Below are positions 1-39,435 of a stretch of DNA of 64,000 bases, piece by piece. The position numbers and the translations under genes were made by a program. Within the stretch, counting starts at the first letter, position 1; each line of letters starts with the position of its first letter. The notes below the pieces were generated by a model. The model was not told the origin of the DNA. It searched no databases and saw only the letters and a list, made by a program, of their open reading frames with translations. The stretch lies in contig QQNF01000001.1 of the NCBI GenBank assembly GCA_003402705.1, positions 74,184 through 138,183 of the forward strand. The letters are read 5' to 3'. This DNA comes from Verrucomicrobiota bacterium. GTDB lineage: Bacteria > Verrucomicrobiota > Verrucomicrobiia > Verrucomicrobiales > V1-33.

Positions 1-797
1 TCAGCGACCTCAACGACGGCGATACCCGCGCCGTCCTCGCCACCGCCGATCAGGAAAAAGCCGTCCGCGTCATGGTCAAATACGGCATGCTCGCCCTACC
101 CGTCGTCGACGACGACGGGCGTCTCCTCGGCATCATCACCCACGAGGACGCCCTCGAGATCCAGGAGGAAGAAAGCACCGAAGACCTCGAACGCCAGTCG
201 GGGATCGCCGGCGACGCCGCAGAAGAGGTCTACCTCAACACCCCAGTCCTCCGCCACGTCCGCAGGCGCGTCGGCTGGATCGTCTCCCTCGGCTTCCTCG
301 GCCTCGTCTCCGGCAGTGTCATCTATTCCTATCAGAATCAGCTCGGCGCAGTCTTCGCCCTCACCATCTACATGCCCATGATCGTCGCCGCCGGCGGCAA
401 CACCGGTGGCCAAGCCGCCACCATGGTCATCCGCGCCATGTCCCTCGGCGAAATCTCCCCGGCCGCCTTCCTCCGCGTCGCATGGAAGGAACTCCGCGTC
501 GGCCTCACCCTCGGCTCCATCCTCGCCCTCTGCATGACCATCCAGGTCCTCTGGTTCCGACCAGACTTCATGGCCATCGACAGCACACTCCTCCTCCGCT
601 TCGCCGCCACCGTCGCCCTCGCCCTCCTCTCCCAGATCACCGCCTCCACTCTCATCGGAGCCGTCCTCCCCATCGGTGCCCGCGCCATCCGCCTCGACCC
701 AGCCGTCATCGCCAGCCCAGCCATCACCACCATCGTCGACGCCACCGGCCTCCTCATCTACCTCAACCTCGCCCGCGCCATCCTCCCGCTCGGCTGA
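1..797 (+). CDS. mgtE: Mg2+ transporter MgtE, 5' end outside the window
   Basis: The frame is open from the window start. A CBS-like segment (LALPVVDDDGRLLGIITHEDALE) is followed by the MgtE membrane domain (YMPMIVAAGGNTGGQAATMVIRA) and several TM helices. Confidence 0.85.
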   Translation, partial: SDLNDGDTRAVLATADQEKAVRVMVKYGMLALPVVDDDGRLLGIITHEDALEIQEEESTEDLERQSGIAGDAAEEVYLNTPVLRHVRRRVGWIVSLGFLGLVSGSVIYSYQNQLGAVFALTIYMPMIVAAGGNTGGQAATMVIRAMSLGEISPAAFLRVAWKELRVGLTLGSILALCMTIQVLWFRPDFMAIDSTLLLRFAATVALALLSQITASTLIGAVLPIGARAIRLDPAVIASPAITTIVDATGLLIYLNLARAILPLG

Positions 798-811
798 TCC
801 CCCTCATCACA

Positions 812-1591
812 TCATTCCCCCGGCCGCTCCCCGCGCACTTCGTGCTCATAAAGCCGGCTGTGCCTAACAAAGGTCTGATACGCCGTGCTCCACGCAATCC
901 ACAACCCCGGAAACCCATCCAGAAACCCCCGCCGCAGCACATACGCACGGAAAAACCGCCACAACGGCCGCGTCACCGTCGGCAGCAACCGCCACCGCTT
1001 CCCCTCCGCCAGCTGCCGCTTCAGATACTCCCCCGCAAACACATTGATCTTCATCACATACCTCTCCATGTCCGGAAACGAATAATGATGCAGGTCACCA
1101 CGGCACGCCAGCACCGGCCCAGCCACCTCAAGGTAGTCATGCTCAGGACTCCCTCCCCACCGCGCCCCCTCACGCCTCACCAGCCGCAGCTTCCGGTCAG
1201 GATACCAGTCGCCATGCGTGATCCACCGCCCCAGAAACCACACCTTCCGCGGAAAACTCGCACCACTCCACCGCTCCGACCCGCCACCACTGAAAAAAGC
1301 CTCGATCTCCCCGCGCATCTCCGCAGACACTTCCTCATCCGCATCCAGCGCCAGCACCCACGGCTCCACGCACTTCTCCAGCACCGCATTCTTCTGATCC
1401 CGATACCCCAGCCACTCCTGTTCCCACCACACCGCCCCGTGCCGCTCCGCCACCGCCCGTGTCCCATCCGTCGACCCGGAATCCATCACCACAATCTCCG
1501 AACCCAACCCAGCCACACTCGCCAGACACCGCTCCAGATTCCTTTCCTCATTCCGGGTAATTACAGAGATCGATATCGGCAGCCGCTTCAT
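812..1591 (-). CDS. Family 2 glycosyltransferase
   Basis: ATG at 1591 gives MKRLPISISVITRNEERNLERCL...VVMDSGSTDGT...LDADEE, a GT2 N-terminal fold with a DxD-like motif. The longer 408-aa ORF extension upstream is low complexity. Confidence 0.8.
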   Translation of the reverse strand: MKRLPISISVITRNEERNLERCLASVAGLGSEIVVMDSGSTDGTRAVAERHGAVWWEQEWLGYRDQKNAVLEKCVEPWVLALDADEEVSAEMRGEIEAFFSGGGSERWSGASFPRKVWFLGRWITHGDWYPDRKLRLVRREGARWGGSPEHDYLEVAGPVLACRGDLHHYSFPDMERYVMKINVFAGEYLKRQLAEGKRWRLLPTVTRPLWRFFRAYVLRRGFLDGFPGLWIAWSTAYQTFVRHSRLYEHEVRGERPGE

Positions 1592-1706
1592 GTCTCCTCC
1601 ACATGGAACCCCTTCCCCTCCCCATCGCAATCCTTTTCTGCCATCACGGCCGTTGACAGCATCGCCCCAGGCTGACACCCTCCTCCAGTCCCCCAGCCCA
1701 AACCTC

Positions 1707-2978
1707 ATGGCCATTCGTCTGGAAAAAGCGGTGATCCGCGGTGAATTCTCTAACGAAATCCGCGGCCAAGTCACCGGTCGCCTCTGGCTCCTCGGCCTCA
1801 AGGCCCCTCTCATCATCAAACTCTTCGGCGATTGCCTCCGCGATCTCGCAGGCTGCGTCCTCTCCTTCGAAAACCCCAACCCGGAACCGCTCCCCCACCT
1901 CGAACTCCTCGCCCCGATCCAGCAGGGCCCCGTCGGCGACATGACCGCTTCCCGCAAAGCACGCATCCCCACCGTCAGCGAATCCGATCTCCTCGACCTC
2001 CTCGCCAAAGGCAAATCCATCCCCGCCAAACTCTCCAATATCCTCTACCTCGAATGGTTCAGCGATACCAACGGCCGCGTCGTCATCGAGGCCCCGGACT
2101 TCAATGTCTCCCTCAGCGAGGCATTCTGGAAAATGGACCGCCACGACGGCTCCGCTCAGGAACTCGCCAACCAGCACGCCTTCCACGACTACATCGACTC
2201 CATCACAGGCATGGACCCATCCGATGATGACGAGGACGACGAAGAAGACCTCGCCGACGACGAAGACGAAGACTCTTTCGCCAACACCTCCGACCCACGC
2301 ACTTCCTCACCCCACTTCGCCTCCTCCTCTCCGGACGCCTTCGATTCCCCACTCAACGAATTCGAATGGGAACAGGAACTCCGCGACGTCGACCGCCGCG
2401 CCGAAGCCTACGCCGAAGCCTGCGACCGCTACCACAATCACCCCCACCGCGAACGCCTCATCGCCGAAGCCATGGGCTGGGAACCGGAAGACATCGAGGA
2501 AATGAGCCGCCACCTCGCTAGCGTCTCCGACGAAATCGATTTCATCGACCCCACCACCTCCCAGCTCTCCCCAGACGACATCGACGACATCGCCGCTCAA
2601 CACCCACTCAGCCGCCGCGCCGTCACCTTCGCCCTCGGCCTCCAGCGCGACGCCGAAGCCGCCGGCCTCCTCGCACGCGACTGCAATCGGGAAAGCCCAG
2701 TCGTCAGCGTCATCGTCTCCGTCATCGCCCTCGGCGGCAAACTCGCCGCCGCCCTCGACCCGCTCGTCGAAGGCTTCGACCTCGACCCGGGCTTCGTCAT
2801 CGCCATGCTCAAACGCGCCCTCGTCCCCCTCAACGAGGCCCTCCACGCCCTCGCCTCCATCGACACCCGCCCGCTCAAACGCCCCGCCCGCGCATGGATC
2901 CGCCTCGCCCGCCGCGAACTCTTCTCCCTCCGCGCCGACGTCCTCGACCTCATGCAGCAGCTCCGCGCCGCCAGCTGA
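1707..2978 (+). CDS. Hypothetical protein with a strongly acidic central region
   Basis: Long ORF with an ATG at 1707 (MAIRLEKAVIRGEF). It contains a D/E-rich linker (DPSDDDEDDEEDLADDEDED). No family recognised. Confidence 0.5.
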   Translation: MAIRLEKAVIRGEFSNEIRGQVTGRLWLLGLKAPLIIKLFGDCLRDLAGCVLSFENPNPEPLPHLELLAPIQQGPVGDMTASRKARIPTVSESDLLDLLAKGKSIPAKLSNILYLEWFSDTNGRVVIEAPDFNVSLSEAFWKMDRHDGSAQELANQHAFHDYIDSITGMDPSDDDEDDEEDLADDEDEDSFANTSDPRTSSPHFASSSPDAFDSPLNEFEWEQELRDVDRRAEAYAEACDRYHNHPHRERLIAEAMGWEPEDIEEMSRHLASVSDEIDFIDPTTSQLSPDDIDDIAAQHPLSRRAVTFALGLQRDAEAAGLLARDCNRESPVVSVIVSVIALGGKLAAALDPLVEGFDLDPGFVIAMLKRALVPLNEALHALASIDTRPLKRPARAWIRLARRELFSLRADVLDLMQQLRAAS

Positions 2979-2987
2979 CCAACCCGC

Positions 2988-3461
2988 TCACACCCCGCCC
3001 CGCGGCAGCAGCGTGATCCGCTTCATCCGGCTCTCGTCCTCCGGTGCCCACGTCTCCACCTCCGGATCATCCCGGAATAAATGGTGCACCAATCGCCGCT
3101 GGTAACTGTTCATCGGCTCCAGCTTCACCGCCCGACCCCCCTCACGCACCAGATCCGCCTGACGCCGCACCTCGTCCAGAAACACATCGTCCTTCCGCGC
3201 CCGGTACCCGTTCACATCCAGCCGCACCCGCGCCGACCCAGGATGCCGCTGCCGCAGCAGCTTGTTCACCAGAAACTGCAGATCCTCCAGCCGATCCCCA
3301 TCCCGCCCCAGCAACGCATCCGCCTCCTTGTCATCCCCCAGCGTCACCTCCAACCCTGGCGGCCCCCCATCCGACGACTCCACCTCCCACACATCACAGT
3401 CATACCCAAGGTGGTGGAGCATCGTCGAAAGAATCTCCTCAGCAGCAGTTACATCGTTCAT
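2988..3461 (-). CDS. jag: Jag/KhpB-like RNA-binding protein (KH-like + R3H domain), lacking the Jag N-terminal domain
   Basis: The C-terminal LEPMNSYQRRLVHHLF matches the R-x3-H motif of R3H domains. Size and layout fit the KH+R3H part of Jag. Confidence 0.7.
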   Translation of the reverse strand: MNDVTAAEEILSTMLHHLGYDCDVWEVESSDGGPPGLEVTLGDDKEADALLGRDGDRLEDLQFLVNKLLRQRHPGSARVRLDVNGYRARKDDVFLDEVRRQADLVREGGRAVKLEPMNSYQRRLVHHLFRDDPEVETWAPEDESRMKRITLLPRGGV

Positions 3462-3557
3462 GGCAAGGGGGGGTCAGCAACCCCACCCATATGCACCTTT
3501 CCCACGCTGCCAATTGCCGCTCTCGCCTTTTTTTCACACCCCCACCCGCCCCAGAGT

Positions 3558-28381: not shown

Positions 28382-28640
28382 CGATCCCAGATACGCCCCT
28401 CGCCTGCCGCTCCGCCCGGCTGAGAATACTGCAATGCCGTGACCCGCTGCGCAGCGGTTCCTGATTCAAGCGCAACGCGACGTCCGGCACCTCCAGACTG
28501 CTCCAGAGCATCCCGTCCCACCTCAGGCACTTGCCATCCGCGTCGCTGAAGACAATTTCCATCCTGTCAGATTTGCTCCCTCCTCATGAGGTGCGGTCGT
28601 CCATCAGAACCACCTTTTCCAGCAATTTGTCCCGCTAGCG

Positions 28641-29684
28641 CTAAAATGCCGCAATGCGTTCGATGACCCAGAACATGGCCACGCTTCCGATCACATACGG
28701 TGGCACCAAATGAGCCCATCGCGGGAGCGGTAATGGCACCCGGCGGGCAAGTGCGGTAATCGCTAGGACGGCAGCAATGAAGGCAAGCTGGCCGAGTTCG
28801 ACGCCGACATTGAAGAAGAGCAGCGACAGCGGAATAGCGTGCTGGGGCAGGCCGACTTCGGTCAGCGCACCAGCGAAGCCAAGACCGTGGAGCAGGCCGA
28901 AGGTGAAGGCCACCACCCACGGCGCGCGCTCCGTGAGCCCCGGATTCCCGGCCCGGCTGCGGAGGATCTCCGCCGCCACAAAGACAATGCTCAGCGCGAT
29001 GCAGGCCTCGACCGGCGGACCTGGGACGTGGACCAAACCAAGCGTCGCTGCGGCTAGGGTCAGGCTGTGCGCGACGGTGAACGCAGTGATCGTTCCCACG
29101 AGCCGCCTCCAGCCTTTCACGAGCAGCACCAGCGCGAGCACGAAGAGCAGGTGGTCGATGCCGAGGAGAATGTGCTCGATCCCGAGCGCGGTATAAGTGC
29201 GCGCGACTTGCCAACCGGACGCCGCGGCGGCGATGATGACCGATGGTTCATCGGGTGTGGCGCGGAACGTTTGCGTGACGCCCTTCACGTCGGTCACGCG
29301 CACGAGAGCGTCGATCTTCGTCGAGGATAGTCCCTCGATGGCAATGCTCTGCCCATCAAGTCCCCCGGGACGCTGGATGCGCCAGCGTTCAATGTGCGCG
29401 CCGCCGGAAAACATCCCGCGCGGCTCACTGAGCTGACGCGCCTCGGCGGGGAACCGCACATAAAGCGCCAGCCGCATCTCCCCGTTCGCAGGCACCTTCC
29501 ACAGCACGTCGTAAGTCTCCGGGGCGGTCTCGCGCAGCTCGAGATACGCCGGCCGCACCTCATGCGCGAACCCAGATGTTAAGCACAAGAGGAAGAGAAG
29601 AATGGCACAGCAGGAAACCGAGAGAACGGAGCAGAAACGACCCTCCGTTCCCTCCTGTTCAAAATGCCTCGGATTGATCCTCAT
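28641..29684 (-). CDS. HupE/UreJ-family membrane protein
   Basis: HILLGIDHLLFVLALVLL...FTVAHSLTLAAATLG...GLLHGLGFAGAL...FNVGVELGQL. Its ATG overlaps the upstream stop (ATGA). Confidence 0.8.
   Translation of the reverse strand: MRINPRHFEQEGTEGRFCSVLSVSCCAILLFLLCLTSGFAHEVRPAYLELRETAPETYDVLWKVPANGEMRLALYVRFPAEARQLSEPRGMFSGGAHIERWRIQRPGGLDGQSIAIEGLSSTKIDALVRVTDVKGVTQTFRATPDEPSVIIAAAASGWQVARTYTALGIEHILLGIDHLLFVLALVLLVKGWRRLVGTITAFTVAHSLTLAAATLGLVHVPGPPVEACIALSIVFVAAEILRSRAGNPGLTERAPWVVAFTFGLLHGLGFAGALTEVGLPQHAIPLSLLFFNVGVELGQLAFIAAVLAITALARRVPLPLPRWAHLVPPYVIGSVAMFWVIERIAAF
29611..29661 (-). repeat. Operon motif copy 1 (inverted pair, overlaps the HupE signal-peptide codons)
   Basis: CAGGAAACCGAGAGAACGGAG ... 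CCCTCCGTTCCCTCCTGTTCA. The arms are imperfectly complementary. Confidence 0.55.
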
Positions 29685-30541
29685 TTCCCCGCGTCGGTCC
29701 CCACCTTTTGCTTCGGCCATTCGATGGTGACGGCATACTGCTTGAGCAGCTCGTCGAGAAACTTGCGGTTAGTCTCCGTGCGGCGCTCGCTCGCCCACTC
29801 GCGCTCCACCTGCGCACGTACCTCTTGCAGCGCGGGCACACGGCCTTCGGTGCGTTGCGCGATGAAGACAACATGCATGCCGAGGCCGGACGGCACCGGT
29901 CCGCACCATTCGCCCACCGGCAGCTTCGCCAGTTCCACGGCAAACTCCCTGCCAAAACTGCTCTCGATGCCACGCTGCGGTTCATCGGCTAGCGACGGAG
30001 GAAGCAGCGAGGGATCGCCGAGTTCGGAAGCGTCCGCCTGCGCGCCCTTCGCCTTCAGCTCCACCAGCATCTGCGCGGCGTCGGCGGCAAGTTTGTCGCC
30101 GCGTTTGTCCGCGTTGAGATACACCTGACGGAACGTGAGCCGCTGATCCTGACGAAACGCGTCCGCATGTTTCGCCAGATACGCCGCCAGCTCCTCCTCG
30201 GTGGGCTCGACGCCCGCGGCAAAATCGTCAGCGATGAATTCCATCTTCTGCTGGAGACGGCGACGGATGATCACGTCATTTTGATCCAGCCCCAGCTTCA
30301 TCGCCTCGCGCGCAAAGACTTCCTCACGGACGTATTGATCGATCAGCCCCTTGACCTCGTCGTCGTTCGGCGGGCGCTGCCAGGTGCGGGCGAACGTCGT
30401 GACCATGTGCTCGACCTGTCCGGGGCTGACGACGATCTGCTGCGGGTCGGTCTGCGGCCTGCGGTTCAGCAAGTGGTAACCGCCAAAGAGCGCCGCGCCA
30501 AGCAGGACGAAATGCAGCAGTGGCTCGCGGAGAAATTTCAT
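29681..30541 (-). CDS. Membrane-anchored parvulin-like peptidyl-prolyl isomerase (PpiC/Rotamase_2-like)
   Basis: N-terminal TM helix, a SurA-N-like helical region, and a C-terminal ...LPVGEWCGPVPSGLGMHVVFIAQRTEG... Confidence 0.55.
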   Translation of the reverse strand: MKFLREPLLHFVLLGAALFGGYHLLNRRPQTDPQQIVVSPGQVEHMVTTFARTWQRPPNDDEVKGLIDQYVREEVFAREAMKLGLDQNDVIIRRRLQQKMEFIADDFAAGVEPTEEELAAYLAKHADAFRQDQRLTFRQVYLNADKRGDKLAADAAQMLVELKAKGAQADASELGDPSLLPPSLADEPQRGIESSFGREFAVELAKLPVGEWCGPVPSGLGMHVVFIAQRTEGRVPALQEVRAQVEREWASERRTETNRKFLDELLKQYAVTIEWPKQKVGTDAGK

Positions 30542-30548
30542 GGGATTT

Positions 30549-30606
30549 GAACAGGAGGAAACGGAGAGGCAGAAAACAATGGCTCTGTTCCCTCCGTTGC
30601 CTCCTC
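30549..30606 (-). repeat. Operon motif copy 2 (inverted pair forming a 13-bp stem with one mismatch, 8 nt upstream of the PPIase ATG)
   Basis: GGAGGAAACGGAG (30554-30566) pairs with CTCCGTTGCCTCC (30592-30604). Confidence 0.6.
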
Positions 30607-30697
30607 TTGGATTGCGATTCTCATTGGTTTGCTCCCGGAAGGATCAGGCGGCTGATGCCGTCGGTGACCTTCAACTCATGGAAATTGACAGTCTTCA

Positions 30698-30727
30698 CCC
30701 TCCGTTCCCCCTGTTCCCTCCTGTTGA
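30698..30727 (-). repeat. Operon motif copy 3
   Basis: CCCTCCGTTCCCCCTGTTCCCTCCTGTTGA, directly after the stop of the 30730-31758 gene. Confidence 0.55.
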
Positions 30728-30729
30728 TT

Positions 30730-31758
30730 TCATGGTTTGTTGGCCGCGGCGCGGCAGGCTTTCAGGTACTCCTGGATCCTCCCGCGCGTCTCCGGAAGGA
30801 CCGGCTCGCCCGAGGCGAGCAGCGTTTGATAGTGTGCCGCCGCGCTCCAATCGCGCCATGCCGCGAGGTCGCGGGCGACGAGTCCGCTGAGCGGGCGCCG
30901 CTCGGCGAGGAACACCCGACAGGCGGCGAGAATGCGCGGACGCAGCCTGTCACTGGCCTCGCCCTGAACACCAAGCGCGGCGACCGCCGCCTGAATCTCC
31001 TCAAGCGTGCGGTCGCGGTCGCGGAGGTAATGGACCTCAAGCCACGCCACACCCTCGTCACCCTCGCGTTCGATGCGGGCAGTTAGCAGTGCGGCGAGGA
31101 GCGAAGCATCATTCGCTTTCCATGCGGCCTCGAGTTGCTCGTTGGCCTTCCGCGCGTCATCGGCGTCGCCGGACGCGCCGAGCAGCACGATCCACATCGG
31201 CTGCGCATAGGCCTGAGCCGGATCGGCGAGCCATGCACGGAGATTCTCCGCCTCGAGGCGCTGCGTCTTGAGCACGCGATAGGGCGCGCGCGCCCATGCC
31301 GCCCAGGCGCTCCTGGCGATGCGCGGATCGGGATGGCCGAGAAACGGACGAAAGGCCGACAGCCGTTCATTCCATTGCGCCTCCGTCACGGTCTCCGCGG
31401 CGGGCAGGTCGAGGATCGCTTTGAAGAACCCGGCGAACTGAATCCCCGACTCGCCCAGGCTGCTCCACGGCGCATCGACCGCCGCACGGGAAAGGATGAG
31501 TGTTCCCTTCCCATCAATGCTCGGCGCTTTCACGCGGACGCCCTTCAACGCCGCATCGCCTTTGATGACCGCATGGACTTCGAAGGTGCCCGCCTCCGTC
31601 AGGGCCGTCGCCACCACCACCTCGTGCGCCACCGACACTTCATCCGCCAACGTCGGCTTCTGCGGCACAACGCCCATGCAGATCGCACATCCCCACGAAA
31701 CCACCGCCGACAGGTGAAACGCAGCGACGAGAGTGAGGATGATGCGATTGCGGCTCAT
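30730..31758 (-). CDS. Secreted hypothetical protein (helical; CxxC close to the signal peptide)
   Basis: ATG at 31758. MSRNRIILTLVAAFHLSAVVSWGCAICMG... No family recognised. Confidence 0.55.
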   Translation of the reverse strand: MSRNRIILTLVAAFHLSAVVSWGCAICMGVVPQKPTLADEVSVAHEVVVATALTEAGTFEVHAVIKGDAALKGVRVKAPSIDGKGTLILSRAAVDAPWSSLGESGIQFAGFFKAILDLPAAETVTEAQWNERLSAFRPFLGHPDPRIARSAWAAWARAPYRVLKTQRLEAENLRAWLADPAQAYAQPMWIVLLGASGDADDARKANEQLEAAWKANDASLLAALLTARIEREGDEGVAWLEVHYLRDRDRTLEEIQAAVAALGVQGEASDRLRPRILAACRVFLAERRPLSGLVARDLAAWRDWSAAAHYQTLLASGEPVLPETRGRIQEYLKACRAAANKP

Positions 31759-31808
31759 CGGGAAACTTGAACAGTACCAAACAGAGTAAGCGGGATCGAG
31801 GATATCAT

Positions 31809-31836
31809 CTCTGTTCCCTCCGTTTCCTCCTGTTGA
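31809..31836 (-). repeat. Operon motif copy 4
   Basis: CTCTGTTCCCTCCGTTTCCTCCTGTTGA, between the DUF3604 stop (31841) and the next ATG (31758). Confidence 0.6.
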
Positions 31837-31840
31837 CGCT

Positions 31841-33631
31841 TCAGGGCGTGAACCAGATCGGCGAGGTCCACGCACGTTCCTGAATGGAAACCTGCACGCC
31901 GGCGGGTGCTTTCACTCCGTAGCGCGCGGCGTCGTAGGTGCTCCAGCGCGGTGTCGGGATTTCCAGAACGCGGGCGTAATAAAGGGCGCGGAGTGATGGG
32001 TCGAAATCGGGATCGGTCCACACATGGGAGAGTTCCGCCGCGCCGATCGAATTCGCGAAGGTGGCCTTCTTCTCATCCACCGTGTTGCCCACGGGCGGCA
32101 ATTTTCCGTCAGCGCCGGGTTGCCGGTCGCCCGACCAGACGACGTCATAAATCTTCTCGTGCGTCTTCCCGGACTTGTCCACCCAGCCCTTGATGATCTG
32201 GATACGATCGAGGTTCGCTCCGTCAGGATCCTTCATCGCCGAGACGATGAATTTCGGAGATTTACCCTCCGGCGCTGACTTCAAATCACCGCCCATCGGC
32301 ACACCGCCAGCATAGGCCGCTTTCGCCATGCCAGGCTTCTTGACGATGGCTGCGTCATAGTCCCAGCCACCGAAGAATCTCGCTGTGATGCGCGTGCCGC
32401 TCGTCGCAAAGGGTTCCTTGCGGTGCATCCCATCCCAGATGCCCTCGCGTGTGTTCGCATCGGCCCAGACACCCGTCAGCGCGCCGGGCGTGAGATCTTT
32501 GCCTTTGATCCAGCCGCCCACTTCGCTGGTCATGCGGCGCTCGGCGGTCCCGTCAGCTGCCCCGTGACTGCCAGCCATGAAATTGTCCTCGGCCGTATTC
32601 GAAGGCGTGCCGTTGTGAGTGTCGGTCCCGCCCACGAAGCCGTATTTGAACGGGTTCACGCCTAGCGCTTGCTCGACAGCGAGTCCTTTGATCACCCCGT
32701 CGCGCACAAAATTCCCCTTGGAGAAAGCACGGCCGCTGTAGTCCTGGATCGAATCGGCATTCTCAAAGTCGGCGAATTCATCAGTGGGCCAGAATGTCCG
32801 ATGCACCTCGGAGTTGCCCTTGATCTGCATCATCTCGACGAGCGGCTCGAAGTGGCTCCGCGTCTCGGCATACGCACGGTCGATCGGCTTCCCCGCGCCG
32901 TCCACATCGGCAAACATCATCCCTTTGCTCGCATTGGAATTGTGAGGAATCGCAAGCACCTTCATGCCCCGCTTTTCGAGACCGGCCATCCACGCCCACA
33001 ATCCGTCCTCGCGACCGATGTCGATGTAGCTCATTACCTTGTCAGGTACGTTCGTGTCGCGGAAGAACACGTTGCGGTGCAGGTTGCCGCCCTTGGGCGC
33101 GCCACTCCATTCAAACGCCGGGATAGTCGTGAACTCGCCGGGCTTATAGTGCTTCGCGGCCGCCTCCATCACGACTTTCCAGCCACTCTTCTCCGTCTCG
33201 ATTCCCGCGTAGAAGGGCGGGTGCTGCGGATTGCCGCCCCGGTTGCTCTTGACCACATACTCGAGAAACCACCTCTCGCGCTCCTCAATGCTCGTCAGTC
33301 CGCGCAACTGCTGGATCAGCTCCTGGTTGTATCCGGGAGCCCCCTCTACCAGCGTCGAATACATCTCGCCGAGATACTCCGCATGATCCGTGACCGCCGC
33401 CCAGTCGAGCGGACGGCGCAGCTTGAATTTCACCCCGTTCACCTCGACCTCCCCGCCCTTCGCGAAAAGATAGGCGTCGGAAGGCGTCAGCCGCGCGCCG
33501 CCGATATACGCGTCGAGCGAGTAGGCGGTGTGAACATGCTGCTCGCCGAAGAACGCACGCCGGTCCTGAGCATCGCCAGCGGTGGGGATCCAGGCGCAGA
33601 GCGCGGCGAGGAATGCTGACGTAGTTCTCAT
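31841..33631 (-). CDS. DUF3604 protein (PHP-like putative metallohydrolase), secreted
   Basis: ATG at 33631. FFGEQHVHTAYSLDAY...AAVTDHAEYLG...IPHNSNASKGMMF... Paralogous to 34319-36277. Confidence 0.8.
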   Translation of the reverse strand: MRTTSAFLAALCAWIPTAGDAQDRRAFFGEQHVHTAYSLDAYIGGARLTPSDAYLFAKGGEVEVNGVKFKLRRPLDWAAVTDHAEYLGEMYSTLVEGAPGYNQELIQQLRGLTSIEERERWFLEYVVKSNRGGNPQHPPFYAGIETEKSGWKVVMEAAAKHYKPGEFTTIPAFEWSGAPKGGNLHRNVFFRDTNVPDKVMSYIDIGREDGLWAWMAGLEKRGMKVLAIPHNSNASKGMMFADVDGAGKPIDRAYAETRSHFEPLVEMMQIKGNSEVHRTFWPTDEFADFENADSIQDYSGRAFSKGNFVRDGVIKGLAVEQALGVNPFKYGFVGGTDTHNGTPSNTAEDNFMAGSHGAADGTAERRMTSEVGGWIKGKDLTPGALTGVWADANTREGIWDGMHRKEPFATSGTRITARFFGGWDYDAAIVKKPGMAKAAYAGGVPMGGDLKSAPEGKSPKFIVSAMKDPDGANLDRIQIIKGWVDKSGKTHEKIYDVVWSGDRQPGADGKLPPVGNTVDEKKATFANSIGAAELSHVWTDPDFDPSLRALYYARVLEIPTPRWSTYDAARYGVKAPAGVQVSIQERAWTSPIWFTP

Positions 33632-33633
33632 GA

Positions 33634-34257
33634 TTAGTTGCCGATAGGTTTTGGTTCCGGGAACTTCCACGAGCCGTCGAGGATCTCCTTGCGTGGCCGA
33701 TAGAGGCGCACCGTGTAATTCCAGCCCTTCGTGATGGGGATGTAGTTCAACTGCTTCGGGTCGCCTCCGAAATGGATCGTAATGGTGCCATCGCTGTCCT
33801 TCTTCGCCGTGATGTTGTTGAACGAATAGGCTTTGGCCGGGTCCACGAGCGTACGGAAAGCAACCTGGACATAGCGCGTGCCAATCTTCTCGCGGGTCAG
33901 CACGTACTCGCCGGGTTCGTATGCCACGGCCTTGATGTAATGGTCCTCGTTGATCACAACCATGGACTGGAATCGCTTCCCGGTGTCCGGTTTCACGATC
34001 GTCACCGGCTGCGTCAGGTCGAACACCCCCCACGAAAAGAGCGTGTCGCGATTCACACGGACGACGACGTGTCTGTCAATCGGAGCAGGCTCACGGACGT
34101 GTCCGAATTTGCCGAACATCCCCTCGTCCACCTTCTTCTTGAAGTTGAAATCGGACTCCGCGCGCAGGTAGTTGTCGGGGGTGACGGGTTCTGCAGCATT
34201 GACTGCGACAGCCGCGAAACCGGTCAGGGTGGCTATAGCCATTGTGGTTGGTTTCAT
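33634..34257 (-). CDS. DUF1214-like secreted protein
   Basis: Signal peptide. The C-terminal ...GWNYTVRLYRPRKEILDGSWKFPEPKPI resembles the DUF1214 ending. Confidence 0.5.
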   Translation of the reverse strand: MKPTTMAIATLTGFAAVAVNAAEPVTPDNYLRAESDFNFKKKVDEGMFGKFGHVREPAPIDRHVVVRVNRDTLFSWGVFDLTQPVTIVKPDTGKRFQSMVVINEDHYIKAVAYEPGEYVLTREKIGTRYVQVAFRTLVDPAKAYSFNNITAKKDSDGTITIHFGGDPKQLNYIPITKGWNYTVRLYRPRKEILDGSWKFPEPKPIGN

Positions 34258-34286
34258 GGTCTTGATGGTGGAACTTGAACAGGAAA

Positions 34287-34313
34287 CTCTGTTCTCTCCG
34301 TTGCCTCCTGTGA
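34287..34313 (-). repeat. Operon motif copy 5
   Basis: CTCTGTTCTCTCCGTTGCCTCCTGTGA, 30 nt upstream of the ATG at 34257. Confidence 0.6.
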
Positions 34314-34318
34314 AACCC

Positions 34319-36277
34319 TCACGGATTGTACCAAATGGGCGAGGTCCACGCGCGCTCCTGGTGTTTCATCGGCACCCCGGCCGGCATTTTGATCCCGTAG
34401 CGGACGCAGTCGTAGGCGGTCCAGCGCGGAGATGGGATCTCGATGACGCGGGTGTAGTAGAAGGCGGGCTGCGCCGGATCGAAGTCAGGGTCGATCCATT
34501 GCGCGGCGAGGTCGGGGTCGCCGATGGTGTTGGTCCACGTAGCGTTGGCAACGTCCACGGTGTCGCCCACGGGCGGGAGTTTGCCGTCCGCGCCAAGCGG
34601 GCGCTTGTCGGCGTCGCCCCAGGCGACCTCGTAAACCTTCTCGTGTGTCTGGCCGTCCTTGTCGAGCCAACCCTTGATGATCTGGATGCGGTCGAGATTC
34701 GCACCGAGCGCGTCCTTCATTGCGGAGAGGAGGAAGGTCGGTGCCTTCGCGCCGTCCGGACGTTTCGGCATGTCCCCACCCATCGGCACGCCTTTGGCAT
34801 AACCGACCGACGGCAAATAGCGGGTCTTCGCATCTTCCGCCGAATAGTCCCAGCCGCCGAAGAAACGCGCGGTGATGCGGGATCCGGAGGTGGCGTAACA
34901 TTCCCTGCGCATCATCGCATCCCAGAGCGCTTCGCGCGTGTTTTCCTTCGCCCAAACCGCAGCGTAGCCCGCAGCGGTGTAATGCCACGTGTAGCGCGTC
35001 TTGCCAAAACCGACCTTCGAGACGTGCTCCCAGCGGTTCGTGTTAGGCTCCTGAAACGGCAACTTGCCGTAGAAATTGTCCTCCTCAATCGAGGTTAGCG
35101 AGTTGTGCACGTCCGTGCCGCCGATCATCCCGATCTTGAAGGGATTCGTGCCGAGTTTCTGCTCCAGCATGAGACCATTCATCAGCGCGCCGCGGATGAA
35201 GCTGAAAGGCCGCATCTCCGGCGTGGCGGGTTTGTCCGTGAGCGAGAGATTGCCATACTCCCAGCCGGCGACGCCGAAGTCCGAGAACTCGTCGTTTGGC
35301 GAAAGCGTCGGGTGGGTCTCGCTGTTGCCCTTGGTCTGCATCACTTCGTGCAGCGGCTCCCAGCGGGCCCGGCGCTTCGCGTAGTCGGAGGTGAGCGGGT
35401 TGCCCTTGAAATCGGTGAGGGCAAACATCAGGCCGTTCGAAAGGTTGCCGTTGTGCGGAATGGCTAGCATCTTGCCGCCGGTCTTCTTTTCGTAAGCATC
35501 CATCCACTTCCAGAGATCCTCGGCGTCTTCGCTCTGCCACGCGGAAAAGGGCATGATCTGGTCAGCCTTGTCCTTGCCATCACGGAAGAGAATGTTGCGG
35601 TGAAGGTTGTTGCCGCCTGGGACCGAAGTCCACTCGTAGGCGATCATCGCGGTGAAGCGGCCGGGATCATTGTATTTCTCGGCGGTCGCCGTGTATTTCT
35701 GCCAGACCGATTTCATGATCGGGCCGACCGTCTTCGGATCTTTAATGAGCGGGGGGAGCGTCCCGTTGCCCTGTCGGACGACGATGTCGCCGGTAGCATC
35801 CGCCGCCGCCTTGCCGCCGTCCTTCATGGCCTTGTTCCAGCTCGCTATCACTTCATCCTTCATGAAGGCTTCGTTGCCTTCAAATACCTGATACATGATC
35901 CCGAGCCCCTCGGCGTGGTCGCTGATGCACAGGAAATCGAGCGGCCGCGAAAGCCTCGCCGGAATTCCCGTCGAGGAGACGACCTCCTCCCCCTTCGCAA
36001 AACGATAGGCGTCTTCCGGGCTGAGCCGGTCCCCCGCCATGAAGGCATCGCCGGAATTCGCGGTGTGGTGATGCGTGTCGCCAAAGAAGACCCGCGTCGG
36101 GAAATCCCGCTGCGCGTACGCCGAGTAGGCCTTCTTGTCGCCCGCCGGATGATGGGCGATCGGGCCCTCCTCTCCCTCCGTGGCAACGCCCGATTTCGTA
36201 GATTCTTGAGAGAAGACGGCGGGCGGACCGGCCGCGAACGCCAGCAAGAAGGACAGAAAAGTTAGTGCGGTTTTCAT
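34319..36277 (-). CDS. DUF3604 protein, second paralog, secreted
   Basis: FFGDTHHHTANSGDAF...LCISDHAEGLG...IPHNGNLSNGLMF... The C-terminal ...ERAWTSPIWYNP parallels ...ERAWTSPIWFTP in the first copy. Confidence 0.8.
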   Translation of the reverse strand: MKTALTFLSFLLAFAAGPPAVFSQESTKSGVATEGEEGPIAHHPAGDKKAYSAYAQRDFPTRVFFGDTHHHTANSGDAFMAGDRLSPEDAYRFAKGEEVVSSTGIPARLSRPLDFLCISDHAEGLGIMYQVFEGNEAFMKDEVIASWNKAMKDGGKAAADATGDIVVRQGNGTLPPLIKDPKTVGPIMKSVWQKYTATAEKYNDPGRFTAMIAYEWTSVPGGNNLHRNILFRDGKDKADQIMPFSAWQSEDAEDLWKWMDAYEKKTGGKMLAIPHNGNLSNGLMFALTDFKGNPLTSDYAKRRARWEPLHEVMQTKGNSETHPTLSPNDEFSDFGVAGWEYGNLSLTDKPATPEMRPFSFIRGALMNGLMLEQKLGTNPFKIGMIGGTDVHNSLTSIEEDNFYGKLPFQEPNTNRWEHVSKVGFGKTRYTWHYTAAGYAAVWAKENTREALWDAMMRRECYATSGSRITARFFGGWDYSAEDAKTRYLPSVGYAKGVPMGGDMPKRPDGAKAPTFLLSAMKDALGANLDRIQIIKGWLDKDGQTHEKVYEVAWGDADKRPLGADGKLPPVGDTVDVANATWTNTIGDPDLAAQWIDPDFDPAQPAFYYTRVIEIPSPRWTAYDCVRYGIKMPAGVPMKHQERAWTSPIWYNP

Positions 36278-39187: not shown

Positions 39188-39435
39188 CCGTGAAGGGGCC
39201 GTGCTTCAGCCAACGATCAGAAATCAGATCGAGGTCCCAGCACGTCTTTCAGCATCAAGAACCGCTACGATTAGGGTGCCGCGCGCCGCAATCGGACAGG
39301 CCTCTTCTCAGAGACCTCGGCGCGTTACAAACTGCACCACCTGAGATGGCAAAGTGACCACCGGGTCGTGGAGCTCGTCCGCCCATTCCGCCATCCCGGC
39401 AGCTCCCGACCCCGCCGCGCCACTCCGCCGCCACC

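Follow-up and report, generated by a model that had tools for sequence, protein, structure and literature searches.

Results

Repeat arms at four junctions of a DUF3604 operon

Our subject is a short purine-rich repeat, probably derived from a family of mobile foldback elements, that recurs at the gene junctions of one operon in a Verrucomicrobiota bacterium. We analyzed a 64,000-nt stretch of DNA, hereafter the window (GenBank assembly GCA_003402705.1, contig QQNF01000001.1, positions 74,184 to 138,183 of the forward strand), from a 4.08-Mb draft genome in 128 contigs that is 75% complete and is referred to below as G000. Open reading frames (ORFs) and Pfam matches show that positions 28641..36277 of the window hold the downstream half of a DUF3604-PPIase-HupE operon, in which every gene is on the minus strand. 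In order of transcription, these genes encode DUF3604a (34319-36277), a 207-aa DUF1214/1254-like protein (33634-34257), DUF3604b (31841-33631), a 343-aa protein without a family (p343; 30730-31758), a PPIC-type peptidyl-prolyl isomerase (PPIase; 29681-30541), and HupE/UreJ (hupE; 28641-29684). Arms of the repeat occur at four junctions, named J1 (DUF3604a/207-aa gene), J3 (DUF3604b/343-aa gene), J4 (343-aa gene/PPIase), and J5 (PPIase/hupE).

Five purine-rich arms (in mRNA sense, TCAACAGGAGGnAACGGAGGGAACAGAG) and their inverted partners are found at these junctions. A search with the pattern CTCTGTTCCCTCCGTTKCCTCCTGT, allowing up to three mismatches, gave matches at 30583-30607, 31809-31833, and 34287-34311, when shuffles predicted 0.00. 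Repeat finding placed 30700-30726 and 29641-29659 in the same family, with inverted partners at 30546-30566 and 29606-29631. On the mRNA (minus) strand every copy is rich in purines, and the end of the purine arm is 30 nt (J1), 50 nt (J3), or 41 nt (J4) from the next ATG. An earlier description of this DNA made by inspection (the sequence-only reading) had reported a reiterated motif, purine-rich in the mRNA and 30 to 50 nt ahead of the next start codon, and our measurements agree with it. The elements begin 2-5 nt past the upstream stop codon and end 2-12 nt ahead of the next ATG.

The junctions differ in how well the inverted partner is preserved. At J1, the purine arm (34287..34313, minus strand; UCACAGGAGGCAACGGAGAGAACAGAG in the mRNA), which was found by the pattern, by repeat finding, and by an nhmmer arm profile (E = 4e-5), begins 5 nt past the DUF3604a stop. 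Read directly from the sequence, a pyrimidine-arm remnant (CUGUUCAAGUUCC) occupies 34270..34282 on the same strand and has the derived 3' end also seen in J3, so that the mRNA runs TGA-5 nt-UCACAGGAGGCAACGGAGAGAACAGAG-UUUC-CUGUUCAAGUUCC-12 nt-AUG. At J3, the purine arm (31809..31836, minus strand) begins 4 nt past the DUF3604b stop and matches the consensus with 0 mismatches, while the pyrimidine arm assigned by the repeat family (31761..31786, minus strand; CUCUGUUUGGUACUGUUCAAGUUUCC) is degenerate and stops 2 nt short of the ATG of the 343-aa gene. Here the layout is TGA-4 nt-UCAACAGGAGGAAACGGAGGGAACAGAG-22 nt-CUCUGUUUGGUACUGUUCAAGUUUCC-2 nt-AUG. A 74-nt repeat found after the DUF3604 paralogs consists of a conserved C-terminal coding stretch plus the arm. 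We dropped a tandem-duplication origin for the copies that follow these paralogs, since in the related genome G012 the two paralogs are present 14 nt apart, without an element between them. Because J1 and J3 have a common 3' end, CUGUUCAAGUU(U)CC, J1 appears to be a local copy of J3 found together with the extra 207-aa gene.

At J4, which is 188 nt long, there are two purine arms on the minus strand. The distal arm (30700..30727) begins 2 nt past the stop of the 343-aa gene and pairs with the arm at 30547-30568 in a 206-nt fold, and the proximal arm (30583..30609) was identified by the pattern, repeats, and fold. The pyrimidine arm (30547..30568, minus strand; repeats and fold), together with the CAAAUCCC that follows it, forms the leader of the PPIase gene, and the mRNA reads TGA-2 nt-arm-90 nt-arm-14 nt-CUCUCCGUUUCCUCCUGUUCAA-AUCCC-AUG. 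At J5, the PPIase stop overlaps the hupE start in an ATGA (ATG at 29684), and the pair lies 19 nt past it and hence within the hupE frame. The J5 purine arm (29641..29663, minus strand; repeats and ORF) encodes ..FEQEGTEG.. and the pyrimidine arm (29606..29631, minus strand; repeats, ORF, and fold) encodes SVLSVSCC of the hydrophobic core of the signal peptide.

Folding of the junction spacers

The J4 hairpin folds with -30.2 kcal/mol (z = -3.4) and leaves 8 nt ahead of the PPIase ATG, and the whole J4 spacer reaches -77 kcal/mol (z = -3.7). The J5 fold is less distinct (-37.7 kcal/mol, z = -1.8), and that of J1 is no better than shuffles (-18.2 kcal/mol, z = -0.55). At J3, where the partner arm has decayed in G000, the fold there has -24.1 kcal/mol and z = +0.16; in relatives the same junction folds strongly (G012, -39 kcal/mol and z = -5.1; G011, z = -3.7; G007, z = -2.2). 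Of two strong inverted pairs put forward in the sequence-only reading, the one at J4 is indeed a strong hairpin 8 nt from the PPIase ATG; the other, at 29611-29661, lies inside hupE and is not intercistronic.

These spacers resemble no known RNA or signal class that we searched for. Rfam 15 gave no match at the gathering threshold in the whole window and none at E <= 1 in 29400-34500, and a promoter and terminator scan found no promoter-like or terminator-like site at any junction. An intrinsic terminator or attenuator does not fit: the hairpins are followed by GUUCAAAUCCC-type sequence instead of a U-run. Sites for CsrA/RsmA were also rejected: there are GGA motifs, but a search of G000 for PF02599 gave no match, with absence unproven at 75% completeness. 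Nor do the arms represent a genome-wide class of purine-first palindromes, the 45 R-first and 37 Y-first loci of G000 being mostly chance matches or terminators. By pattern search and nhmmer, no complementary trans partner of the arms exists elsewhere in the G000 assembly.

Confinement in G000 and dispersal in relatives

In G000, all seven arms lie in the operon, as determined by a pattern search and by nhmmer profiles built from the arms and full elements of relatives. No degenerate arm copies were detected elsewhere in the assembly by nhmmer, and two weak extra matches are a duplicated gene start encoding a signal peptide. Contigs C7 (100800-101107) and C51 (28090-28391) of G000 end in the same ~300-nt sequence, a secreted-protein gene start (MKAAARFCSLLSILVP...), which is either a duplicated gene or a collapsed repeat that broke the assembly. 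The sequence-only reading had limited the motif to the downstream half of the operon and had set it against a generic repetitive extragenic palindromic (REP) sequence. Both points hold within G000, where the whole assembly (75% complete) has no match outside the operon.

The picture in relatives is different. Among 61 related genomes, the arm was found in 14, and a reversed control pattern gave no matches. The first pattern counted 70 arms in G017, 42 in G012, 15 in G007, and 11 in G011 (5 of these 11 in the DUF3604 operon), and other families of the order had one copy each; refined patterns raised the counts to 89 in G017 and 44 in G012. Copies examined in the other families are at loci without any of the operon's proteins. 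Each arm is built from three purine "words" (RRAACRGAG, ~8 nt) with TTGAACAGG at the head. Inverted pairs of arms enclose an interior that is specific to the family, and these units are found in both orientations and with constant length.

The elements of relatives are 174 bp long including their outer termini, which are CTGAAAACCGGTATGAGTT-TGAACAGG... in G012 and CCTAAATGCCGGAATGGTT-TGGAACAGG... in G017, and they have inverted ends of ~47 nt with the motif inside. Element ends in the MITE-rich clade, that is, the relatives rich in these miniature inverted-repeat transposable elements (MITEs), are of the CTGAAAACCGG...CTCTTTTTAGG type. In 23 canonical copies from G012 and G017, the two 6-nt flanks agree on average at 4.26 of 6 positions, compared to 2.64 for shuffled pairings, and the observed average was reached in 0 of 5000 shuffles. 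These 6-bp target-site duplications include ATGAAC/ATGAAC, CTGAAC/CTGAAC, and TTTATC/TTTATC. Ten G012 copies have near-identical termini, which points to recent activity. Besides the canonical form, there are short foldback variants of 69-110 nt with the same arms, unrelated loops, and usually a stop codon that they abut, and for several upstream genes the stop codon is supplied by the TGA within TTGAACAGG or by the TAA in the MITE terminus. The relatives' elements thus show what is expected of MITEs: they are non-coding and shorter than ~400 bp, with terminal inverted repeats, target duplications, dispersed copies, and filled and empty sites between relatives. We found no published description of this family in Verrucomicrobia.

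Filled and empty junctions in orthologous operons

Across the GTDB set, the 343-aa gene is present in only four other species, three of the same genus (G012, G011, and G007) and one of another genus (G028), and a wider search for orthologous operons returned just these four. In each of the five species the gene lies between DUF3604 and PPIase; its product (30730-31758 in the window) has no Pfam family and displays an invariant C-x2-C right behind an N-terminal hydrophobic segment. G012 has the closest operon to that of G000 (DUF3604b 95%, DUF3604a 92%, PPIase 90%, HupE 81%, and p343 79% identity), and G011 operon proteins are 67-78% identical to those of G000.

The state of the junctions varies among these operons. 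J1 has the element and the 207-aa gene in G000 and is empty in G012, where the paralogs are 14 nt apart, and in G007 the contig ends. The 207-aa gene and the J1 element (33634-34257 with 34258-34318) are absent in G012, either by insertion in G000 or by deletion in G012. At J3, the element is present in G000, G012, G011, and G007, and G028 has an ATGA overlap. Since it is common to all four congeners with the operon, the J3 element is old; it is also the only junction conserved in all operons of the genus, which is how far the conservation looked for by the sequence-only reading extends. J4 is filled in G000 and G011, empty in G012 with an ATGA overlap, occupied in G007 by a vapBC-like cassette, and a TTGA overlap in G028. 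At J5, the element is in frame in G000 and G011; G012 has a plain ATGA overlap and a clean 21-aa signal peptide, G028 is without element, and the contig ends in G007.

J4 offers a direct comparison of filled and empty sites. The G012 sequence is caATGAAATTTctccgc (empty site caATGAAATTTctc), and that of G000 is ccATGAAAT[CAACAGG...CCUGUUCAAAUCCC]ATGAAATTTctccgc or, in short, ATGAAAT[element]ATGAAATTTctc. As judged against the empty site, ATGAAAT is a 7-bp direct duplication, whose left copy (30727..30733, minus strand) holds the TGA stop of the 343-aa gene and whose right copy (30535..30541, minus strand) holds the PPIase ATG. The duplication therefore retains the upstream TGA and recreates the PPIase ATG. 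The J4 elements of G000 and G011 have derived features in common: both have AAGAGG in the 5' arm, and their 3' arms, together with AAAUCCC, are identical. Most parsimoniously, these sequences would reflect one old insertion at J4 followed by loss in G012, for which the 7-bp direct repeats could have offered a precise route. In G007 (contig C1062), J4 carries a 686-nt insert in place of the repeat, in which an antitoxin-like ORF of the ribbon-helix-helix type (MKTLTIRLPDSLVTEIEHE...) and a PIN-like one make up a vapBC-type cassette; J4 is therefore an insertion hot spot.

At J5, the HupE signal peptide reads MMRAAITSLLVWWALALAAFA|HEVRP in G012, MRINPRHFEQEGTEGRFCSVLSVSCCAILLFLLCLTSGFA|HEVRP in G000, and MRITLNHFEQEGTEGMEKPVSVGFCSNPKRTPFPLPSVLSVSSCSILFFLLCFASAFA|HEVRP in G011, where the insert is 54 nt longer than that of G000. 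In G000, no start codon downstream of the element would appear to leave hupE with a workable signal peptide.

Conservation of the arms and context of translation starts

We compared the arms of orthologous junctions with 4-fold degenerate sites of p343 and PPIase in G000, G012, and G011, for which identity is 0.60-0.70. Between G000 and G011, the J4 3' arm and leader are identical at 27/27 positions (P 1.6e-6), the J4 5' arm at 24/28 (P 0.004), and the J3 5' arm at 26/28 (P 2e-4). The J3 3' arm and leader are identical at 32/36 positions between G012 and G011 (P 1e-3). The loops between orthologous arms differ by indels. Because the arms are more conserved than synonymous sites, the junction spacers are likely under purifying selection, acting on the leader or on the hairpin; some of this conservation would be seen at any translation initiation region. 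The J3 partner arm has been lost in G000, and the hairpin can be dispensed with.

Ahead of 420 well-defined starts in G000 there is no Shine-Dalgarno (SD) peak, and the leaders are G-poor and C-rich, with 12-20% G at -20 to -1 and a C at -1 in 66% of the 420 starts. The G000 metagenome-assembled genome is without a 16S gene; the 16S of a congener ends in GGAUCACCUCCU and keeps the CCUCC anti-SD.

Origin of the operon

Genes of G000 have an extreme strand-specific C3/G3 bias, with a median |C3-G3| of 0.53 and only 6% of long genes below 0.10. The window is C3/G3-balanced from ~6.8 to 39.2 kb (~32 kb), all eight operon genes included, and the core genes on either side (3-3473, and 39436 onward) carry the bias. 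This ~32-kb balanced stretch looks like a large imported island. The same stretch (~6800-39200) also contains vapBC cassettes and a broken kinase gene. MurA of G000 is 98% identical to that of G001, the closest species, and 83% to that of G012, compared to 92-95% identity to G012 for DUF3604a/b. G001 and other small-genome congeners have neither the arm nor p343. Most likely, the operon would have been imported from a large-genome, MITE-rich subclade and have brought its junction elements along, a scenario with moderate support because identities to G012 are uneven. Import into a lineage that does not host the family is also the most likely reason that the arms of G000 are confined to the operon.

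In G001, contig C173 (256-336) has a 39-nt remnant of the hupE 3' end (compared with window 28633-28671) almost directly joined to a match to 39273-39316, beyond the LysR gene. Copies of a dispersed CGCAATCGGACAGACCTCTTC repeat are found at this deletion scar.

Discussion

Taken together, these results make it probable that the motif is the inverted-repeat arm of a Verrucomicrobia MITE or foldback family and that the window copies are short or eroded derivatives of it at four operon junctions. Several observations weigh against this interpretation. The copies in the window are not full members of the family, having only the arms in common with it and none of the outer 20-nt termini. The J4 interior has no significant similarity to MITE interiors (6/200 shuffles reach its score), and we therefore make no claim that J4 is a full-length MITE. 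A target duplication is seen in the window at J4 alone (7 bp), and other short variants show none. We found no autonomous insertion sequence with the same ends in five genomes, and all 10 matches to the outer terminus in G012 are 174-bp copies. Orthology of J4 and J5 in G000 and G011 would require that G012 lost both, one of them precisely. Constraint also seems higher than a purely passive relic would show, given that the arms are conserved above synonymous sites and that the purine arms at J1 and J3 have stayed intact next to decayed partners. As for import, the hupE remnant implies that the operon predates the split of G000 and G001 and that the 10.6-kb operon was deleted in G001; furthermore, OMb is just 62% identical to G012, and import rests on codon bias and uneven identities.

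A mechanism compatible with these observations can be outlined. Short or eroded elements would have been inserted into, or inherited at, four stop/start junctions of one operon, and in the polycistronic mRNA each reads purine arm, loop, and pyrimidine arm. A ribosome terminating at the upstream stop would cover and unwind the first bases of the 5' arm, and the freed 3' arm, G-poor and C-rich, could act as the leader of the next gene. Because the pyrimidine arm would be released as a typical leader, the hairpin spacer might replace the ancestral ATGA overlap at little cost. Such hairpins could also slow 3' exonucleases and protect the upstream mRNA. The J5 copy has been absorbed into the signal-peptide coding sequence of HupE. 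There is precedent for several of these steps. PMC12548453 reviews the ribosome helicase, RNA-unfolding model of coupling and describes mycobacterial interspersed repetitive units (MIRUs) inserted at start codons, with -4 coupling. Fusions of MITE reading frames to genes are documented, as are MIRUs that lie between genes of one polycistron and overlap them, and clusters of bacterial interspersed mosaic elements (BIMEs) with REP units can affect mRNA stability (PMC3184786).

The sequence-only reading favored an element that controls processing, stability, or translation of this operon or that binds an RNA-binding regulator. In a related reading, the arms, whatever their origin, would now be a co-opted, operon-specific cis RNA element that sets downstream gene output through protein or anti-SD binding or as a determinant of processing or stability. 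We consider this unlikely as the main account, although much of what that reading described has stood: the copies are at intercistronic junctions and on the mRNA strand, with two strong hairpins, they are no generic REP in G000, and the orthologous junction arms are more conserved than 4-fold sites. Confinement to the operon in G000, the share of G011 arms (5/11) in the operon, the intact J1 and J3 purine arms next to decayed partners, and a congener's CCUCC anti-SD that could pair with GGAGG words all speak for co-option. What finds no support is the dedication to the operon. The same arm is a dispersed MITE repeat in relatives, at dozens of unrelated loci, and three of the four elements (J1, J4, and J5) are absent in the closest orthologous operon, that of G012, while the outgroup G028 has none. 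The decay of the J1 and J3 partners, the lack of a CsrA gene (in a genome 75% complete), of an Rfam match, and of a trans-complementary copy elsewhere in the assembly, and the start-adjacent conservation expected of any translation initiation region, count against it as well.

It is more doubtful that the elements are translated as bridging mini-ORFs, as in mycobacterial MIRUs, with a start that overlaps the upstream stop (GTGA) and a stop that overlaps the downstream start (ATGA). J1 in G000 and J3 in G012 and G011 are open from GTGA to ATGA, J3 lengths of 82, 79, and 82 nt preserve the phase, and J3 and J4 of G000 hold ORFs of 17 and 28 codons that start with ATG and terminate in ATGA. At all junctions, the in-frame J5 included, the purine arm has the same frame, Q-E-x-T-E-G-T-E, and the -4 coupling of MIRUs inserted at start codons (PMC12548453) offers a parallel. 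However, the composition of the arms excludes stop codons in any frame, so open frames come cheap, and the frames of two or three independent junctions would agree by chance with a probability of ~0.04-0.1. J4 of G011 has no start codon, and the J3 frame of G007 is closed. Other short family elements in G012 show no consistent frame, and bridging mini-ORFs are not supported as a family-wide property.

A REP/REPIN family mobilized by a REP-associated tyrosine transposase (RAYT; an IS200-like Y1 transposase) is very improbable and largely refuted. The MITE-rich relatives do have 13-26 Y1_Tnp matches per genome, when G000 has one fragment, and one RAYT gene of G017 has arms on both sides; but an arm lies within 1.5 kb of only 5 of 30 RAYT loci, and a different, GC-rich palindrome flanks the G017 gene more closely. 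In contrast to REP sequences, which are GC-rich palindromes with a GTAG or CGTC head, the arms are not palindromic themselves and consist of purine-only word repeats headed by TTGAACAGG. Y1 transposition makes no target duplications, whereas the elements make 6-bp ones. The G017 locus has features of its own: the transposase (RAYT-type, PF01797) on contig C112 lies between inverted GC-rich palindromes at 596-680 and 1250-1335 (CCGGAACGGGTTGCATCATCCCGC, CCAGGGGTTGGCCGGAGG...), which represent a separate REP-like family in the MITE-rich relatives. Finally, DNA operator sites for the divergent LysR-type regulator, whose gene is at the operon head, or for another transcription factor, would explain why copies are inverted repeats, but this is scarcely credible for copies found between and within genes, 5-10 kb downstream from the promoter region, in a single orientation relative to transcription, without promoter-like sites at the junctions and with the same sequence dispersed in relatives.

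Among known systems, the closest functional analogues of these probably MITE-derived junction elements are Correia, ERIC, and MIRU elements inside operons and, for the in-frame copy, Rickettsia palindromic elements (RPEs). Correia/NEMIS elements of Neisseria, ERIC of Yersinia, and the pneumococcal RUP and BOX MITEs (PMC3184786) are likewise small, non-coding, and dispersed, with terminal inverted repeats and target duplications; they form long mRNA hairpins, show filled and empty sites between relatives, and in some cases are fused in frame to genes. Unlike these, the Verrucomicrobia arms are tandem purine words of ~8 nt, so that the purine arm comes first on either strand, the window copies lack outer termini, the family occurs in G000 at one operon alone, and no cognate transposase was found. 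MIRUs, in the parts of Supply et al. (1997) that PMC3184786 and PMC12548453 relate, are also found between genes of a polycistron, with ends that overlap stop and start codons and internal ORFs with -4 (ATGA) overlap, and downstream expression is apparently preserved. By the same accounts, however, MIRUs are direct tandem units (variable-number tandem repeats) and not foldbacks, and the bridging ORF is inconsistent between the copies described here. REP/BIME sequences and REPINs of Proteobacteria (PMC3116915, PMC3733652) are intergenic repeats that form hairpins as well; in contrast to them, the arms here have target duplications and no RAYT association, and are not short palindromes that are GC-rich and headed by GTAG or CGTC. 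RPEs are palindromic mobile repeats tolerated in frame, as is the copy here, which makes up the N-region of the HupE signal peptide with some of its hydrophobic core and is kept in two species despite the 54-nt difference in length. Unlike RPEs, one copy alone is in coding sequence here, and there is no sequence relationship.

A bolder and only tentative extension is that the junction elements might be domesticated "stop-to-start adaptors," in which the foldback would be selected since coupling survives its insertion, in Verrucomicrobia that initiate without SD pairing. The terminating ribosome would melt the purine arm next to the stop codon, or would be held by it through pairing of GGAGG with the anti-SD. 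The pyrimidine arm would be set free to serve as a leader poor in G, and would stay hidden from Rho if upstream translation fails.

These findings mean that a candidate operon-specific riboregulator gives way to a documented case of mobile foldback repeats that shape operon junctions. Clear cases are J4, where filled and empty sites can be compared and the stop and start are kept, J5, where the element is part of a signal peptide, and the arms that are conserved above the synonymous background. They also define by sequence a MITE family (174 bp, with a 6-bp target duplication) for an uncultured group of Verrucomicrobia, and they show that confinement of a repeat to a single locus can be a sign of imported DNA. 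If the adaptor idea were true, such elements would be a general, lineage-wide way to build and rewire operon junctions, and would matter for the understanding of translational coupling in bacteria that lack SD initiation.

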